DNA of 59,275 bases, filler included, from Dugesia japonica (Eukaryota): the NCBI GenBank assembly GCA_001938525.1. It is 5 parts of 5 records of this genome, joined end to end, with 100 filler letters (N's around TTAATTAATTAA, not from the genome) between each part and the next. Parts side by side here need not be neighbours in the genome. Positions count along the whole stretch, not along the records: positions 38,846 to 59,275 come from MQRL01628381.1; 4 more parts are not named here. The stretch is one strand, 5' to 3'. Positions within the stretch are counted from its first letter, which is position 1; the number at the start of each line of letters is the position of its first letter. Under the pieces are notes generated by a model. It saw nothing but the letters and a program-made list of their open reading frames with translations, was not told the origin of the DNA and made no database searches. This document shows, one piece after another, positions 37,960-59,275 of this stretch. The translations under genes and the position numbers were made by a program.

Positions 37960-38710
37960 GACATGAATAATTTATTTTCATCTTCACTGTTTCTATTGAA
38001 GAATCATCTTTAGATTTCGTGTAGACCCACTTCATGATCTTAGATGCTATTTTGTTAGTCTTATATCCAAATCAAAAGTTAAGCGCAATGGATACATCAT
38101 CAAATATAAGATAATATGGATAATCACAAGTGAAGGNTATTCTTATCATATGGAATATAACAACATTTTCATTTTGTTTGACACTCAACGATTTTTCTTC
38201 GTTATTAATTGAAATAGTTATATCCTACGAAATATCGTTCTGTGTCATGAAATGAATTTGTGATTTGTTATAAACTGGAAATGGAGNNNNNNNNNNNNNN
38301 NNNNNNNNNNNNNNNNNNNNNNNNNNNNNNNNNNNNATATCCAAATCAAAAGTTAAGCGCAATGGATACATCATCAAATATAAGATAATATGGATAATCA
38401 CAAGTGAAGGTTATTCTTATCATATGGAATATAACAACATTTTCATTTTGTTTGACACTCAACGATTTTTCTTCGTTATTAATTGNAATAGTTATATCCT
38501 ACGAAATATCGTTCTGTGTCATGAAATGAATTTGTGATTTGTTATAAACTGGAAATGGAGAATATACAAAGGTGAAATCTTACAATACTAATTCCTACTA
38601 CATCAGGTTTTGAAGCTCAATAATGAATTTACTAGCTGTAGTTTCTGGATGAATAAGCGGACAACTATTACTCGGTAAAATTGTATAGAAATTATTTGAT
38701 TTTATCTCAT
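37960..38710 (-). pseudogene. Second Maverick minor capsid gene, 5' fragment
   Basis: NFYTILPSNSCPLIHPETTASKFIIELQN; nucleotide similarity to 23540-23715 (TTTTACCGAGTAATAGT, GATTTCACCTTT). Confidence 0.85.
38063..38560. repeat. 224-bp identical duplication on both sides of an N-gap (38063-38286, 38337-38560); probable assembly artefact
   Basis: Copies are identical apart from Ns and abut the gap. Confidence 0.9.
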
Positions 38711-39213: not shown

Positions 39214-39829
39214 GACAGAAATTGACATTGAAAATGTTATAAAAATCTATGAAGAATATAATAAGGATAATAATTGCGAACATTGTTCAGAAAATAAGAA
39301 GATTTTGAAAAGAAAATTTTTTGAAACAATTTATCGTGACAGTCATAAAAGAAAATGTTAGTTTAATGTATTAGTATAATGTTATAAATAAATAAATTTA
39401 ATCAGTAAATGTTTTTTCTNNNNNNNNNNNNNNNNNNNNNNNNNNNNNNNNNNNNNNNNNNNNNNNNNNNNNNNNNNNNNNNNNNNNNNNNNNNNNNNNN
39501 NNNNNNNNNNNNNNNNNNNNNNNNNNNNNNNNNNNNNNNNNNNNNNNNNGGGTGATATAGAAATTTTTTCTTTGTTTGTTTGGACATGGAAAATTTTTCG
39601 ATAAACGATGAGTCACCCTGATCTAGAAAATTTTTCTTGGTTTAAATGGACTTAGAAAATTTTTTGAAAAAAAGTATGACTCATCTTGATCTAGAAAAAC
39701 GATGAGTCATCGATGAGTCATCGTCTTTGTTCTAGTCATCGATAAGTCATACTTATGACTCAAGCTCTTTGTTATAAAAGTTCTTTGTCTAAGGGGGGGG
39801 GTGATCCAGCGCGCCACTATCTACCTACT
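39214..39829 (-). mobile_element. Maverick-type right terminus with AP-1 array; same family as the 56343 terminus
   Basis: Reverse complement AGTAGGTAGATAGTGGCGCGCTGGATCACCCCCCCC..TAGACAAAGAACTTTTATAACAAAGA; at least five TGA(G/C)TCA sites. Confidence 0.8.
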
Positions 39830-44408: not shown

Positions 44409-44897
44409 TCAGTTCATGGTGGTTGACCACACCCACAAACCTTTATTTTCGGGTTCAATATTTTCCCTAATATATAAAGATTTAAACCAATAATTTTTTG
44501 AACATTTATTATTTAAAACGCTGGGATCTAGCCATTGATCTGGATCATTTATTGTAAAATTAAACGCCGCATAATCAACCGCATCGTTCCACTGTACCCA
44601 AGTTGGGTTACCGATTTGACGAGAAAGATCAGCTAAATACTGCTTTAAAAAATCGATCTTCCTTATCAGCAGTTGTTTGTTTTCGTCGTCTAGCGCCTTA
44701 GTTTGGACTGCCAAATCGTTTTGTTTTTTAACGATTAAGTCTAACTTTTTAATAAGTTTGTCACGTTGGCCAAGATGTTTTAAAAGAGTCTTATCTGCTT
44801 TGCGCTTTAAGTGGCGTTCCAACAACAAACGACGCATGATCCGGTGGCACCTTCGTAAACTTGTGTTTTTAAAAATTATATTAATGTTATATATCAC
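44409..44897 (-). CDS. Unknown basic coiled-coil protein (intact frame, probably an exon), element-borne
   Basis: 162-codon open frame in very AT-rich DNA; homologous to decayed 9975-10314. Confidence 0.65.
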   Translation of the reverse strand: MIYNINIIFKNTSLRRCHRIMRRLLLERHLKRKADKTLLKHLGQRDKLIKKLDLIVKKQNDLAVQTKALDDENKQLLIRKIDFLKQYLADLSRQIGNPTWVQWNDAVDYAAFNFTINDPDQWLDPSVLNNKCSKNYWFKSLYIRENIEPENKGLWVWSTTMN

Positions 44898-45543
44898 ATT
44901 TTAGGAAATTTTTTGATCTTCTCTACGTTTCTTTCAAGACATTTTTCGTTTGTATCTTCCATAATGAAACGTCTGTTGTGAACTTTCCTCTTAATCTTAT
45001 AGGGTCCTTCATAACGATTTTGGTTCTTGTTTCTTGTTTCACTTCACTAAATTCAGGAATAGAAAATATTTAATATAGTAAATCTAGTCACTAATTATAC
45101 TGTATTTATTCTATACATAGTCATTTAATATGCTTAATTTGTCTACGTTTTGACTTATTTTCTTACCATTTCTGATACTTTAGTCATTTTTGACCATTTA
45201 CCATATATTTCCTTGACTTACCCCTATTAAGCTATATTTAACATATTTTCACTGATTTCTATTATGTTTTAATGCATATTTTCATAGACCTCACTTCAAT
45301 AATCTTTAAAACGTGGCATATATTAATAAAAGAAGACAATATGGCTGAGTGAGACCTAGTAAGATGATTTTTATTTAAAATAATATAACTATGTCAGTAT
45401 ATTTTAATCATCTTATTATCCTGCTGCTTCTTTGCTTGCTCTTTGGTTTTTATGGGTATCTCTTTCTTTTAAATACCTTATATTCAGATATATTGTTAAA
45501 GAATAATAGTTCAACATGGAAAATACGGATCTCGCCATTAGAA

Positions 45544-46658
45544 AGTAGATGGATAGTAGCGCACTGGAAGACTTTTTTTTGATCGATTCCCCCCCCCCAT
45601 TTTTTTGTTTAAATGAGGTAAATTTTTTTTTAAATTAAGTCAAAGTAATTATTTTTGTTTAAATTGAGTGAAATTATTAGATTTTTGTTTAAATTAACGA
45701 AATTAGTGATTCTTTGTTTAAATTAATCAAAATTAAATGATTGTTTTTTTAAATTTAAAGAAATGAATAACTTTTGAGTTTCTTCATGGAAAAGTTATTG
45801 AAAAGCTTATATCTCGTTTAATTAAACAAAATTTATCGAATGTGATTTTCTCCTCGGAAACACATTACGCTTGAGCTGCGTTTTTTGACATGATTTTTGT
45901 ATTCGTTTTTTTATTCCTAAGATTTTTGGGATCAAAAACATTTTTTTATCGAATCAGTTTTTTTATCCTGGGTGTGTGTGCGTATTTTTAAATTTTTTTG
46001 TATGTTTGGATTGCTAAGGTAGTTTTAAAAAAGTAGGTCAAGTTTTTTTTGTGTGTGTGGTTGTGTGTGTAAGAGTAGAAAAACAAGTAGGAGGAACTGG
46101 AGATCTTGGAAATAATTTTTTGTAGTTTTAAAGATTTGGTTGTAGTTGGACAAAAATTTGACCTTCTTTTTAAAAACCACCTTAGGAATCCAAACACACA
46201 CAAAAATCAAAAATACGCACACACACTCAGGATAAAAAAAACTGATCTGATCAAAAAAATTTTTTGATCCCAAAAATCTTAGGAATAAAAAAACGAACAC
46301 AAAAATCATGTCAAAAAAACGCAGCTCAAGCGTAATGTGTTTCCGAGGAGAAAATCACATTCGATAAATTTTGTTTAATTAAACGAGANNNNNNNNNNNN
46401 NNNNNNNTTTCCATGAAGAAACTCAAAAGTTATTCATTTCATTAAATTTAAACAAACAATCATTTAATTTCGATTAATTTAAACAAAAATCCAATAATTT
46501 CACTCAATTTAAACAAAAATAATTACTTTGACTTAATTTAAAAAAAATTCACCTCATTTAAACAAAAAGAATGGGGGGGAACGGTCGAAAATAAAAAATC
46601 TTCCGAAATTTTTTTTTCATTCGGGGAGGGTGTTCCAGTGCGATACTATCCATCTAAT
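45544..46658. mobile_element. Non-autonomous Maverick-type foldback element, about 500-bp inverted arms, about 100-bp spacer, 6-bp TSD TTAGAA
   Basis: Left end AGTAGATGGATAGTAGCGCACTGGAA, right end TTCCAGTGCGATACTATCCATCTAAT; TTAGAA at 45538-45543 and 46659-46664; arms are near-perfect reverse complements. Confidence 0.92.
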
Positions 46659-48249: not shown

Positions 48250-49066
48250 CCTATCGTATAGTATAAATTTCAATACATTCTGAGTTTCTTTAGATATTTA
48301 AAAAAAAGTATCAACAAACCCGGGAAGGCGGCAGTACATATTCGTTAGGAAGGATTTTCCGGAGACGATATTTAAACTTTACACAGTCACCATATTTGCC
48401 TGAATAAAATAATACCAAATTTGAATCGATAGTGGACATCAGTGCACAAAAATCAGAGCGCTAAAAGCTGAATTTTGAGATATTTTAACCACAAAATCCC
48501 ATTTATTTCATCAACTATTAAATTAAGTTAACTTTAGGTTAACACATCTGGAATCAGCGAACCATTCTCTATTGAATAGACAACTTTTTAACCTATTTGA
48601 GAAGAAAAAATCTTTTCGAAAAATTTTTAATGGTGCAAAATAATCGTGGTAAAATTCTCAGCAGTTTGGTATAAAAATCTTTGAAATCTGAGATATAGAA
48701 CATATTTTCTCAAAAATTTAGACTGTTCACCCAGACTCCCATAAAAAATTCATTCAAAATTTTTTTAATTTTTCATATTATTTAAACAAAATAAACGGCT
48801 TGCTCGGATTCCTGAAATAAATTTCCTTAAAAAATTTTTGCCAACTAAAAAGCTTGAAAAAATATTGCAGCTTAAAAAAGAATAAAAAATTTCCCAAATA
48901 AAACCACATAAAACGTAGAGCCACTTAATTAAGTAATATTACCTAATAAGATGTCATTTTTTAAAATTCCCAACTAAATGCATTAGAATTAAGTTTCATT
49001 ACATCACTAATCCGTCGGGGGGATTACTGAATGTGTACTGGTAATGTTCGCTACTATTCATCTACT
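48250..49066 (-). mobile_element. Maverick-type right terminus; same family as the 58795 terminus
   Basis: Reverse complement AGTAGATGAATAGTAGCGAAC..CAGTACACATTCAGTAATCCCCCC versus CAGCACACATTCAGCAAACCCCCC at ~58820. The left boundary is approximate. Confidence 0.65.
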
Positions 49067-49471
49067 TATAATTAATTAATAATTATTTAAAGATTTCTAA
49101 ACGTTATCAACGTTTATAAATGAAAGTTGTTTTAAATTCATCTTTATTCAAAATACTCAAAAACTGTTAATTAAAATTAAAGAAAAAATATAAATGATGT
49201 TTAAAATAGTATTGAAAAAGAAGTTACAAAAATATATTCCAAAGCGAACCGTGACGATAAAGAATACAAAAAATAAATTAAAACAATTTTTATTTCGGCT
49301 TTCATTGAATACAAACAATTCACATAATAGTTTATTGTCCATGAAAAAATTGTAATTTTTCTATGTTATGCTAGCAAAATTGATGAAAAGATGTGCAATT
49401 CAAATGCTGTAAAAGTAATCATATAAAATGAATTTATTTATCATTTCCGTTATTATTTAGATATAATCATA

Positions 49472-50384
49472 ATGTTTCATTTTATCATTTTCTTATTGAT
49501 AATTAGTGTTGTATATTGCGATATTTATGAATCTGCGGATTCNTGTATTTTCAATAATATGACAACAGTAAATGCGAATTCCAATATCAAATGTGGAATA
49601 GAATGTAGTCTTAGACAATGTAAAGCATTCAAATTTAATTCGATTGAAAAATATTGTAATTTATACAAATTTTCTGAAATTTGTCAATCAAATACAAATT
49701 GCACAAACAATACTGTTTTCATTAATGATCGATACAATAATTTAGTAATATATTTTATTTAATAAATATATTCATTGATTTATATTCTAATTTCAGTATG
49801 AAAGTGATAATATTGGATTCAGATATAAAATATTGAATGGAGTTAATTATATATATGATGACGGGTACCCATCTGTATTCAATATTAATGATTCTAATGC
49901 AGCTGGTCCTTTGCTAGTTGGAAACTCAAACAAAGTAATAATGGCATTGGGAACATTTGGAAATAGTAAATTAATTTTGTATCCAAAATCCGGTTTTGTT
50001 ACAAAATTAGCTCAGTCTAAATTAAATAATTCTCGATTGATTACGAATATGTTGAAATATTTTTCAAATGGAAATTGTTCTGATCCAAAGGATTGTTATC
50101 ATTCAATTGTTTATTATGATAATTTTACTAATTTAAAAAATCAGGTATTTGGTGTAGATCAAAATTCAACATTCAATTTGACAGATTTGTTGAGCCAACC
50201 AAATATTGATAATTGGCATTTTATTGTTTCAGGAACATTTTGGACCATTCCAAATTTGCCAGATATTTATAAATTGGTCAATTTATATGGCTTGTGTATT
50301 ACAACAGGTTATGAGACCAGTGATTTCTTAGTGAGAGGAAATATTTGTGAAAATATTACAACTTATAAAAATGATAAATGTTGA
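49472..50384 (+). CDS. Secreted protein, 286 aa: signal peptide + PAN/Apple-like domain + TCAF/FAM115 N-terminal-like domain (exons 49472-49744, 49797-50384; 52-nt intron)
   Basis: Phase-0 GT..AG intron joins two ORFs; hydrophobic N-terminus; C...C....CKAFKFN....CNL PAN pattern; ILNGV......PS.F.I.....PLLV.....IMA...G.SKLI pattern. Confidence 0.8.
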
Positions 50385-54661: not shown

Positions 54662-54874
54662 TCACGAGAAATTTGCGAGTTCTAATACTCCAAATGCAAT
54701 TGGTAGTAATTCTGTTATAAATCCGCCATATTGTTTATACAAAATCTTTTTTATTAATTTCTTATTCTATGTATTTATAAGTGTTAACAGCGACTTTTTA
54801 TGTTTTTCCTATGCCTGTCTTCTATTTTTGCTTAAAGTTACATTACCATGAACGAAATTCACAATAATCTCAAG
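54662..54874 (-). pseudogene. Second Maverick PW-like gene, cut at its 5' side by the 54875 terminus
   Basis: EIIVNFVHGNVTLSKNRRQA*EKHKKSLLTLINT*NKKLIKKILYKQYGGFITELLPIAFG; homologous to 22190-22440. Confidence 0.8.
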
Positions 54875-55090: not shown

Positions 55091-56342
55091 TGATGACTGG
55101 GGACAGTTTTAGTTTAATTAAAGATGAAATTCAATAATTAAATTTACATAACTTTAATATTTGGTTTATATTAATGAGGGACAAATCTTATATTAAGAAA
55201 TTTAAATTACTATAAATAGTATATTATATCTTAAAGTGAAAAGAAAAATAAATATAATTACTAAAAATAATGCGAACAAAAATAAAATAAAATAAGATAA
55301 AATAAAATAAGGTAGGTGAAAATAAAATAAAGTAGATAAACCACCTACAGTTAAAAACTTTTGTATAAATATGAATTGTGTAGATAGTAATACTGCACAA
55401 ATTATCATTTTATTAAGGTAAAATATTGATTATTTTATTAAGGTACAAGTTAATCAACATTTGTTATCGTGNAATACTATTTGGAAATTCGGTCAATATA
55501 TTAATTGGAATTACTTTTCGGGAAAATTATTGTTTTTTAAGGAGTAAATTTTTTATTTAAAATTTTCTAATTTTTATAAAACAACTGGGATAGCTTTTTA
55601 ATTTGAAAAAGTTAATATTTTCAATTTAATTTCATAGTCTGTTAAAGACTAGTTTTTATTTATTTTTCAAATTATTTGAAGTCTGTTAAAGACTTGTTAA
55701 TAAAATTTTGGAAAGTCTGACATAGACTAGTGTTTTAGTTAATTTATTTTATATAATTTTATTTCATTGATATTACTTTTATTAGTCAGTTATTTACTAG
55801 CAAACAAAGTATTAATTAAAATTTAAAAAAGGGATACTGTTAGACATAATTGTTAGCAGGTATCCTGTGTTTTCCAAAAATCAATATAAAAATTACCGAG
55901 ACCCAAAAATCTCGTTTCTTGTGTCCATTGTTTAAAGGTGGTGTGCTGCGATTTGTTTGTGCGTATAACCTTTAGGTCAGTAGTTATTTCTGAGCTCTTT
56001 CAATTAAATTATATAGGAGCAGGTTGCTCGAAAAAGGTATCCCTAAAATTCAGATTTACTTTATATTTTATTTAGTCAATTTTTTTGTAAAATTGTTTAT
56101 AGTTTTAATAAAAGTTTATTATAAAATAAACGTGTTATCTTGATTGATTTATATTTATTTATTATATAATTACTTATAATGAATAAAATAACGTTATACC
56201 TACACGCCTATTTAATTTATATTTGGAGTCAGATAAATATTTTTTGAACGACCAGATAGGAAATGAAAAAGTAAGATAGTATTGTCTTATTACCTAAAGC
56301 GTAAAATAATTCCTTCCCTATTAAATTCGCTTTTAAATTATA

Positions 56343-58794
56343 TGTAGGTAAATAGTAGCGCAATAGATCACCCTTGCCCCTCCTCCTAGACAAGAAACTT
56401 TTATAACAAAGACAATGATTCATACCTATGACTCATTGATGACTGAAAAAAGACGATGACTCAGCATGATGACTCATTGATGACTAGAACAAAGACAAGG
56501 ACTCATCGTATTTTAGATTAAGAGTCATCGTTTTTATTGATCATAAGTCATAGTTTTTCTTAAAGTTATTTTCAAAGTCAGTTATCTATTACCCACGATT
56601 CTGATTGGTCAGTGATATAGTATCCATAATTCTGTATGGTAGACATTATTCAAAGGTTTAATGATGAGCCCCCTATAAAAAATTTTTTTAATTTTTTATT
56701 TATTTATTTTTTGTAAATTTTTTTTTAAAAATTTTTTTTACCAGTTCATCGTTTTTTTTAAGGTTATCCATTTGTATTTTTTTATCAAGGTCATCCAATA
56801 TTATGAGCACTACTACGTTTTCGAGTGTATTATTGCTTAGGTACCATGTAATATGTAAACAACAACCGTTTAATATATGGTTTTTGTATTAGTTGCATAG
56901 TTAACTGGTAATCATGTATTATAATGTTTTTGAGTGTTATACATATATAGCAAAATGAGTATATAAGGATTATGAGTGTATTATTTACATAGTAACCCTG
57001 TAATATAGGTTTTATGATTATATTATTTGAATAGTTACCTTGTATTATTTACATTGCAACCGTGTATTTAAGGGTTTATGAATGTATTATTTGCCTAGTT
57101 ACCTTGTGTTATTTACATATTAACCGTATATATTAGGGTTTATGAGTATATTATTTACATATTAACCGTGTGATTTAAGGTTTACGAGTGTAGTATTTGC
57201 ATAGTTACCTTGTATTATTTAAATATTAAACGTGTATTATTTACATATTAACCGTGTATTTAAAGTTTATGAGTGTATTATTTATCTAGTTACCTTGTAT
57301 TATTTACATAGTAACCGTGTATTTTAGGGTTTATAATTCTACTATTTACATATTAACTGTGTAATCAAAGGTTTACGAGTGTATTATTTGCATAGTTACC
57401 TTGTATTATTAACATAGCAACCATGTATTACATGGTTTATCATGTAAATATGGTTTATGAGTGTATATGATTTTAATATTTATAATGTAAAATTACTGTA
57501 TTAATACTTAATGTCTACTTGGTGTTATGTTTTTTACTGCAATAAATCATTATGAAAACATTAGTAATATTTAATTATATAACATTTTATATAACATAAA
57601 GAAAGACAAAATATAAATACATTTATTCAATGATAACAAATATATTCATTGTATTTATTCATTTCAGTCAGATGCTTCTCCTTGGCAACCAGAAAATTAA
57701 ACGTTTCACATCCATTACAGTTAAGTGCGCAAAATTCCGGCGACATATATATTATATATATGCATAATATAAAACCACAACGTAATATATAAATTATTTG
57801 AAATTTAAATATCTAAATTTAAATTAATATTTTTTCGTACTTGAATTGTAAACGTTTTGCATTCATGTTGCGAAGTTTCTAAATTATTTCAATCAAATCA
57901 AATAAATATGAAGTAATGTTATTCACATATCCTTGAAAATTCAACTTTTAAAGCGTTAGTATTACTAGTTTTTCTGTTGAGAACGCATTTATACATAAAG
58001 TGTCATATTTTATAAGTCGTATAGGAAATAACTCCGGTTCAAACCAGTAGCTGACTATTCTTGCTAATTTATACATATTTATTGAAACTCACATATTTAC
58101 AACAATTAATAGTGACTTTAATTGTAAATTTTTATATCGTAGTGGTTCAATTCATGCGGTTTCAATGGTTTCTAACAACCCATTATTCCACATTTTTATG
58201 ATCTAAAGTAAATAATTGTAAAGTTATCACTTTTGACTTAAAATTGACATGGTATGTGTATAAAAAAGCTCATTTTATTTGTTACTTTTGCATCACTTCA
58301 TCTCTGTAATTAATATTGGTAATCATAATTAATGAATTTAGACGAAAATTTATATGAAAATTTCTCACACTCATAAACTATATTCATTCATAAAATATTC
58401 ACTTTTAAGATTTTATATAGACTTAGGAGACGGTTACTCAGTAATTTTAAGATATATATGAAAACGTTACATAATTATAAATCATATACACTCACAATCC
58501 CTTATATATACATACAAATATTTACTTAGTTATTTATCAGTTATTTTTGAAATAATTTCCACACTCATACACCATATAAACTCGAAAAACCTATACTACA
58601 CAGTGTTTAAGTAAATAATACAATGCAAATATACAAATATTACACTCATAAACCCTATATTATAAGTACCTTCATAAGCCTTTTATTACACGTTTGATAT
58701 GTATATAATTTCTTAAAAAGTATTATATTTCATAAACCTTATATTTTTTGGTTGCTATGTAAGTATAACACTCATAGACATTATAATACATGAT
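56343..58794. mobile_element. Mini Maverick-type element: long inverted arms with tandem arrays around a ~0.8-kb cargo; right arm interrupted at 58795
   Basis: Terminus TGTAGGTAAATAGTAGCGCAATAGATCACCC; GTTTATGAGTGTATTATTTACATA arrays (56800-57470) mirrored by ACACTCATAAAC arrays (58365-58794); 56911-56952 is the near reverse complement of 58752-58794. Confidence 0.75.
57879..58326 (-). pseudogene. Decayed minimal TATA-binding-protein-like gene (about 148 codons, two frameshifts, several stops)
   Basis: MITNINYR...TLQLF..KCGIMGC...NLQLKSLLIVVNM*VSINMYKLARIVSYWFEPELFPIRLIKYDTLCINAFSTEKLVILTL*KLNFQGYVNNITSYL aligns by eye to both TBP repeats (YEPELFP..IFVSGKVVLTGAK..AFENIYPIL). Confidence 0.75.
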
Positions 58795-59275
58795 AGTAGT
58801 TGGATAGTGGCCGTAAAGAACAGCACACATTCAGCAAACCCCCCCCCCGCCCCCTATACGTAAATGGATTATGACATAACTGTTTTTAAATTTTTCTAAT
58901 GTATTTAGTTGGGAAAATTTTTCAGGCTTTTTAGTTGTGAATTGGCTCTGTGAGGTCGATGAGGTTGAATTTTGATTGGTTTTAAGTGGTTTTTGTCAAA
59001 ACCTTTCTCGGTGAGGTGGAATAAGATTGATTTTTGATTGGTTTAAGTGAATTTGGTTTGAAATTTTCTCGGTGAGGTCGAATTTGGTCAATTTTTGAAT
59101 GGTTCAGGTTAATTTGGTCAAATATTTCCTCGGGATTGGTTGGTTTGGGTAATTTTTGGGCGTTTTGGTCTAATGTTTTCTTTGGCATTGATGATTTTTA
59201 TTGATTTAGGTGAACTTGGTTGAAAGTTTTCTCGGTTAGGTTGAATATAGTCAATTTTTGATTGGTTCAGTTGAA
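58795..59275 (+). mobile_element. Maverick-type left terminus followed by ~60-bp tandem repeats rich in ATTGG
   Basis: AGTAGTTGGATAGTGGCC..poly-C; repeated TTTCTCGGTGAGGTCGAATTTGGTCAATTTTTGATTGGTT. Confidence 0.75.

Follow-up and report, generated by a model that had tools for sequence, protein, structure and literature searches.

The window analyzed here is a stretch of 59,275 nucleotides (filler included) from Dugesia japonica, and near its end, at positions 56343 to 58794, it holds a repeat-flanked unit around a broken gene for a short TATA-binding protein (mini-TBP). We read this unit, with a probability of about 0.6, as a dead piece of a Maverick/Polinton that is likely an internal-deletion derivative, and the intact form of its mini-TBP as a protein that likely activated element genes. 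An earlier note on the same DNA had described a distinct mini-element built around TBP. The interest lies in the mini-TBP family and its candidate switch; the mini-element design is unproven.

The minus-strand frames from 58326 to 57879 carry the motifs FEPELFP and NAFSTEKLVI, and the last 90 codons (stops read as X) matched the archaeal TBP 1mp9_A with an E value of 2.4e-4. A profile of intact relatives matched pieces of the window gene with E values of 4e-22 and 3e-10 and spanned it in three frames, so that two frame breaks must be placed, one near 58290 and one within 58184-58130. Stop codons were found at 58240, 58198, 58091, and 57950, with a further one at 58154 inside the uncertain break zone. 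This copy yields no protein and is dead, while retaining both C-lobe glutamates of the TFIIB contact. A word-based homologue search with the broken piece returned nothing, whereas the HMMER search succeeded. No second TBP copy was detected within the window by the profile of intact relatives; in the window tally the TBP remnant counts once, as do ATPase, integrase, and protease.

The window copy was 63% identical to its nearest intact relative (P0116) and 14 to 19% identical to 11 cellular TBPs. In a tree of 68 rows it was sister to P0116 (Shimodaira-Hasegawa approximate likelihood-ratio test [SH-aLRT] support, 99) inside a 43-row clade of element-type proteins (support, 99). Its terminal branch was long (0.42 versus 0.067 in the tree), as expected from decay after insertion. 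A processed pseudogene of host TBP or of a TBP-related factor, captured between repeats, would also be intronless and decayed and would show the TBP motif. This origin is highly improbable in view of the identity values, of the family's shortened first lobe in the window copy, and of the approximately unbiased (AU) test, which rejected nesting of the copy inside cellular TBPs (p-AU, 5e-102). It is refuted for the cellular TBPs tested, 11 rows with no animal TBP or TRF2 among them.

A HMMER search of 1.84 billion proteins returned 49 relatives at an E value of ≤0.001; one of these matches (P0024) was a repeat-rich chance match and was excluded. All 26 relatives submitted to Pfam passed the TBP cut-off (PF00352). 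A profile built from 38 relatives matched 474 proteins at an E value of ≤1e-10, the unlisted of which may include ordinary TBPs; among the matches listed, 120 clusters scored at least 200 bits and were mostly 144 to 170 amino acids long. Likewise, the closest clusters in the ESM Atlas were TBP-domain proteins of 144 to 158 amino acids with nearly no taxon records. The model of the intact relative P0005 (pLDDT, 97) comprised nine strands and three helices and matched solved TBPs with TM scores of 0.65 to 0.77 (Z, 13.4; root-mean-square deviation, 2.3; 143 of 148 residues aligned). The predicted fold of P0005 is the two-lobe saddle of TBP.

Canonical TBP has a set of four DNA-intercalating phenylalanines. 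Three of them were 100% conserved in the 134 of 164 family proteins in which residues were counted, and several DNA-face columns were 95 to 100% conserved. The N-lobe stirrup is lost, its column holding phenylalanine in 13% of the proteins. The glutamates of the C-lobe E-x-E loop were kept in 96% and 100%. Most columns of N-lobe helix H2 were gapped in 82 to 100% of rows, and the distance from the first strand to the EPE loop had a median of 94 residues (125 of the 134 proteins) versus 116 to 117 in four cellular TBPs, a shortening of about 22 residues. According to PMC7221094, the two C-lobe glutamates contact TFIIB, and a basic patch located mostly on H2 contacts TFIIA, TAF1, Brf1/2, and Mot1. 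As judged from the alignment, the mini-TBP family retains the TFIIB-contact glutamates and deletes the H2 regulator patch.

Two further kinds of Polinton TBP were encountered. A longer subfamily (L026, L027, L030, L031, and L032; 165 to 180 amino acids) retains part of H2 and also uses the promoter word TATAAAC described below; it is a possible intermediate in N-lobe shrinkage. A full-length, 188-amino-acid TBP-like gene at L066:2165-2731 (also in L071 and L040) branches outside the mini-TBP clade and is possibly a second, independent TBP capture. L066 itself is a complete-looking Polinton with pPolB-, integrase-, ATPase-, and protease-like open reading frames (ORFs) named from sequence.

Of 200 confirmed loci, the metagenome scan retained 80, and 29 of these (L005 to L033) belong to the mini-TBP clade by profile score. 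Among the 12 loci whose ORFs were submitted to Pfam, 5 had an adenovirus-type protease, A32 ATPase, rve integrase, or pPolB above the cut-off, and loci beyond those 5 carry clear relatives of Polinton core genes. Given these neighbors, full-size Polintons regularly carry mini-TBP as one of their accessory genes. ORFs of 412 to 426 amino acids at the expected capsid place were 26 to 43% identical in alignment and had no Pfam or PDB sequence match; they are candidate double jelly-roll major capsid genes. The decayed Polinton core of the window is itself of the TBP-bearing type, being most similar to the neighbor genes of mini-TBP: its pieces were 41 to 75% identical to such neighbors, with ATPase, integrase, and other pieces reaching 73 to 75% identity to those of L013 and L024. 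In the eight loci checked, the TBP gene was never between inverted arms. The four loci on viral contigs all encode giant virus-like TBPs, none of the mini-TBP family. The terminus word gave four scattered and uninformative matches across 84 loci. A 79-bp tandem array lies directly 5' of an intact mini-TBP gene at L010:1095-1385, recalling the array of the window gene.

The word TATAAAC was the top 7-mer 5' of genes in mini-TBP loci (30 of 105 regions versus 1.9 expected). Across the 29 loci it occurred 58 times on the strand of the TBP gene and 6 times on the opposite strand, with about 19 expected per strand; counts in the other 55 loci were 28 and 29 versus about 60 expected. All but one of the 36 ORF-linked occurrences were 25 to 55 nucleotides before the ATG, 22 of them at 32 to 39 nucleotides. 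None of 22 TBP genes had the word ahead of it, compared with 25 of 82 other genes. The ordinary TATA word, in turn, preceded 10 of 23 TBP genes (null mean, 4.5; 1 of 500 shuffles) and 14 of 82 other genes (null, 12.2). In the window's Polinton core, TATAAAC is present at 21152, 21844, 25612, and 26075, ahead of the ATPase gene and at the end of the core. That it stands ahead of many genes but of no TBP gene is suggestive of a private late promoter.

An activator role of the intact mini-TBP is somewhat favored on the strength of the sequence and the model. In the parent element, host TBP would express mini-TBP first, from an ordinary TATA box. Mini-TBP would then likely bind TATAAAC before packaging and other genes, and its intact C-lobe glutamates would likely recruit host TFIIB and RNA polymerase II, while loss of N-lobe H2 would allow escape from control by TFIIA, TAF1, Brf, and Mot1/BTAF1. 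It is unlikely that the intact protein was a decoy or repressor that tied up host TFIIB or TATA boxes. Such a function would fit the loss of the N-lobe phenylalanine, strand, and helix H2 next to a nearly invariant TFIIB loop; it fits poorly with three phenylalanines and several DNA-face columns conserved at 95 to 100%, and with a uniform noncanonical TATA word at promoter distance that is absent before the TBP gene itself.

As for the gene and its product, the earlier note had correctly recognized a decayed TBP-like ORF at 58326-57879 with its two motifs. The TLQLF segment it assigned to the first repeat is in a frame unused by relatives, the true first-lobe stretch being in the next frame. 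The 1mp9_A match and the predicted fold of P0005 agree with the compact, highly diverged TBP fold it proposed, and the comparison with 11 cellular TBPs, none from an animal, excluded a processed pseudogene of those tested. An element-specific transcription factor working with host RNA polymerase II, one of its suggestions, is the likely role by sequence criteria; action on the arm repeats found no support, as the candidate target is TATAAAC before Polinton genes.

Features of the unit and the two window elements used for comparison are listed in Table 1. Perfect AP-1 words at 56429, 56457, and 56470 lie inside the 41-bp repeats of the outer left arm. The two tandem arrays were 78% identical over 203 columns when one was inverted (score, 148; maximum of 200 shuffles, 72), and the right arm equals the left at each of the last 12 bases before the match ends at 58794. 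The element starting at 58795, whose end resembles that at 49066 and was joined to other flanks in RNA reads, was likely inserted into the right arm. The inner flanks without the arrays were not significantly inverted (score, 50; null mean, 50; 104 of 200 shuffles as high), and the left arm's outermost 570 bp have no mirror image. Within the window there was neither a right terminus for the unit nor a 6-bp target site duplication (TSD) closing it, and no terminus in reverse orientation occurs after 49066; the left 6-bp flank recurs eight times downstream, and a terminus preceded none of the six recurrences inspected. A pairing of the 56343 end with a similar end at 39829 was rejected, because the two ends point away from each other (56344-56579 is 80% identical to 39828-39583). 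The unit has inverted arrays, but its outer right arm is missing from the window, as are its right terminus and TSD. Only the TBP gene matched any Polinton-locus ORF within 56300-59275, which leaves the unit without pPolB and integrase.

Table 1. Positions of the unit around the broken mini-TBP gene and of related elements in the window
Feature	Position	Strand	Remarks
Left terminus, Maverick/Polinton type, AGTAG-type family	56343..56361	+	Terminus-word match
Outer left arm: C-rich box and 41-bp repeats with three AP-1 words	56344..56816	+	
Left tandem array, 22/42-bp units	56817..57466	+	Includes 191-bp higher-order duplication, 85% identical
Low-copy spacer with short TA-rich run at its end	57467..57752	.	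Not significantly inverted versus right inner flank
Broken mini-TBP gene	57879..58326	-	149 codon positions; two frame breaks, 4-5 stops; inside core ~57753-58338
Degenerate inner right arm, low-copy	58340..58560	-	Weak inverted match to left array: score 72, equaled by 1/200 shuffles
Right tandem array, inverted copy of left array	58561..58794	-	
Start of other element, same terminus family, 61-bp repeats	58795..59275	+	Leaves window at its end
Complete gene-less foldback element, same terminus family	45544..46658		1,115 bp, palindromic; arms 93% identical; 6-bp TSD; internal control
Decayed Polinton core	21152..27722	+	Core at 21192-27722; packaging ATPase, integrase, penton-position ORF, protease, pPolB N-part

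The anatomy proposed from the sequence alone was in large part recovered. The terminus at 56343 is one of 13 family matches between 18958 and 58795, where 0.12 would be expected by chance; the three AP-1 words, the tandem array, and its mirror image are all present; and the unit lacks pPolB, integrase, and capsid genes. The flanks qualify as inverted arms in their arrays, not in the inner flanks, which match at chance level, nor in the unmirrored outer left arm. With that arm unmirrored and both right terminus and TSD missing, 56343-58794 could not be upheld as a whole element.

Next to the TBP gene, no homology to Polinton-locus proteins was found in the spacer (57467-57752). An open frame of 61 codons whose tail is Cys-rich (57627-57812, minus strand), just downstream of the gene, may be due to chance or be a remnant of the next gene; as a neighboring Polinton gene it had no homologue in the 29 loci.

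An origin of the locus as a deletion derivative of a full-size element is probable. The parent, a full-size Polinton in which the TBP gene adjoined one of the arms, would have lost its interior, giving an arm-gene-arm arrangement; later insertion of the other element would have cut the right arm, and the gene would have decayed. It is less likely by a wide margin that two unrelated remnants of the same family, a left end (56343-57466) and a right end with TBP (57753-58794), abut here in a nested cluster. The 13 termini in 59 kb, mostly unpaired, the inner flanks, and arms that are 71 to 78% identical versus 93% in the foldback control all speak for such an accident. Conversely, <1.1 kb of terminus-free sequence separates the two facing arrays, the right arm follows the left to its last base, and the long terminal branch of the TBP copy indicates an age that fits diverged arms.

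Contigs from two runs (X1, kind unrecorded; X2, guessed to be DNA) that were at 80% likeness to the region 57500-58835 numbered 3,463 and 3,190. Summed depth over the ORF was 2.5e3 to 1.7e5 versus 4 to 16 for single listed contigs; depth is no copy number, and the sum points to a very large TBP-core family in this species. Depth was 19 to 695 in the inner flanks, a 100- to 1,000-fold fall just outside the core, and only 1 or 2 contigs covered 58465-58474. The inner flanks of the window copy are therefore shared by a small group, the majority of TBP copies being flanked otherwise. For another copy, a single contig (guessed to be DNA) connects the start of the TBP gene with the array, so the placement of the gene beside an arm is not unique to the window copy; none of the contigs listed spans the whole unit. 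RNA reads numbered 359 and 66 (X10 and X13), and as none was 99% or more alike and 79 to 88% continued into unlike sequence, other copies must be their source. First mates favored the plus strand in all 11 ORF bins for X10, which is the sense direction under the usual stranding of libraries, and in 5 of 11 for X13.

Nonautonomous foldback and deletion derivatives of DNA transposons keep their ends, lose their interior, and need a helper. The element at 45544-46658 is such a foldback Polinton derivative; having both ends and a 6-bp TSD, it validates the terminus family and indicates that gene-less minis are mobile in this genome. The unit studied here differs in keeping one accessory gene, and its mobility is only conjectured. 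We consider it unlikely that the unit belongs to a mobilized, helper-dependent mini-Maverick family with mini-TBP as its sole cargo, kept for helper expression or for an effect on the host. The arm-gene-arm layout, the complete gene-less mini in the window, the very high copy level of the TBP core with both inner flanks recurring in several other contigs, and the sense-biased RNA reads from related copies in one of two runs would be expected of such a family. The steep drop in depth outside the core, with most TBP copies otherwise flanked, would not, nor would the missing right terminus and TSD or a gene that is ordinary in full-size elements and dead here. In addition, TBP is not overrepresented in the window relative to ATPase, integrase, and protease (one each, a tiny sample). 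The regular presence of the gene in full-size Polintons and the other flanks of most TBP-bearing copies thus tell against a distinct mini-element built around TBP. A more specific form, in which a satellite family of two arms and a stripped-down TBP recruits TFIIB and RNA polymerase II to the TATAAAC promoters of full-size Polintons, is more doubtful still.

Several observations weigh against the deletion derivative and the activator role. The sequences searched, which do not include the whole genome, contained no full-length parent that has such arms; the genome mobilizes gene-less minis; positions 57641, 57711, and 58384 were covered by 6 to 20 contigs, which fits a small mobilized subfamily; and, as the inner flanks are not significantly inverted, the arms may come from two elements. 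pPolB was seen only with the longer, H2-bearing subfamily (L027) and in L066, never on H2-less contigs (≤7.2 kb). Pfam gave no match for the broken window pieces, and placement of the window copy at the family's base survived the AU test (p-AU, 0.276), a test that grouped the copy with all cellular rows and merely shifts it to that base. One of the four DNA-wedging phenylalanines is missing, and DNA binding is predicted only. Finally, TATAAAC was chosen after its enrichment had been seen, and that enrichment comes from related, TBP-bearing loci, so that the link to the TBP gene is correlative.

Overall, the sequence of the window is AT-rich and eukaryotic, and it is interrupted by assembly gaps. 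It includes a piece of the NIP7 gene and remnants that, from their ORFs, we take to be gypsy-like retroelements. Most of the 13 Polinton-type ends are unpaired and densely clustered, and their subterminal repeats differ (31, 41, 61, 64, and 66 bp), with AP-1 or CCAAT words abundant in several; 8 of the 14 perfect AP-1 words in the window are in two related ends. A Polinton ORF fragment (54674-54874, minus strand) ends exactly at the next terminus, 54875, a second nested insertion like that at 58795. A penton-position fragment was found at 38732-38601. A direct duplication of 224 bp (38063-38286 and 38337-38560, 99% identical) on either side of an N gap is likely an assembly artifact. Open frames of 111, 197, and 163 codons occur at 49427-50384 (plus strand) and 44409-44900 (minus strand); the 111- and 197-codon frames, with a Cys-rich, secreted-looking start, may represent a host gene, and Pfam gave no significant match for the 197- and 163-codon frames.

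With Maverick/Polintons and adintoviruses/MELD viruses, as described in Starrett et al. (PMC8502044, 10.1101/697771), PMC10748475, and PMC3014272, the locus shares repeat-rich terminal arms and an AG-starting terminus, and the mini-TBP relatives share the gene set of pPolB, rve integrase, A32 ATPase, and adenovirus-type protease. In contrast to them, the unit has no core gene, right end, or TSD within the window. Polinton TSD sizes given in PMC10748475 and PMC3014272 agree with the 6-bp TSD of the control element. Cellular and archaeal TBPs (PF00352; 1cdw, 1ytb, 2z8u, and 1mp9) share with mini-TBP the two-lobe saddle, the EPELFP loop, both TFIIB glutamates, and three intercalating phenylalanines; mini-TBP is 21 to 25% identical to solved TBPs and lacks H2 and the N-lobe stirrup with its phenylalanine.

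The TBPs of nucleocytoplasmic large DNA viruses (PMC7221094) and herpesvirus mimics resemble mini-TBP as virus-encoded TBP folds minus the host-regulator surface. Viral TBPs in the former source have diverged TFIIB-contact residues, have lost the H2 patch, and have their own TFIIB as partner, whereas the glutamates of mini-TBP are of the host type, and the loci inspected showed no TFIIB gene. In herpesviruses, the TBP mimics that serve late genes, ORF24 of Kaposi's sarcoma-associated herpesvirus among them, read a variant TA-rich late promoter with host RNA polymerase II (PMC12529657, PMC7498053). Unlike these domains of large proteins, mini-TBP is a stand-alone protein of 150 amino acids, and its BFVD matches were 10 to 20% identical. 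A term search of PMC11161782, 10.64898/2026.06.19.733378, PMC10748475, and 10.1101/2025.02.07.637071 gave no mention of TBP; the sole mention found was a figure-legend label in Starrett et al. (PMC8502044), one supplement file of which had no match. The TBP family, its lost helix, and the promoter word are undescribed in the parts of that study and of the Polinton papers covered. More broadly, no account of the mini-TBP family, the promoter word, or a TBP-only element was found in the literature searched, which excluded Repbase and most subscription papers.

To our knowledge, Polintons are without an RNA polymerase. A short TBP that keeps the TFIIB loop and lacks the regulator helix, together with the TATAAAC pattern, is a concrete candidate for an early-to-late switch in the timing of packaging and capsid genes, parallel to the herpesvirus TBP mimics. 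As a natural minimal TBP, mini-TBP may also inform which parts of TBP initiation requires. A TBP-only satellite, if true, would represent a novel type of relation between helper and satellite. The value of the window copy is as a sign that TBP-bearing Polintons have been heavily amplified in an animal-type genome and have shed short derivatives.

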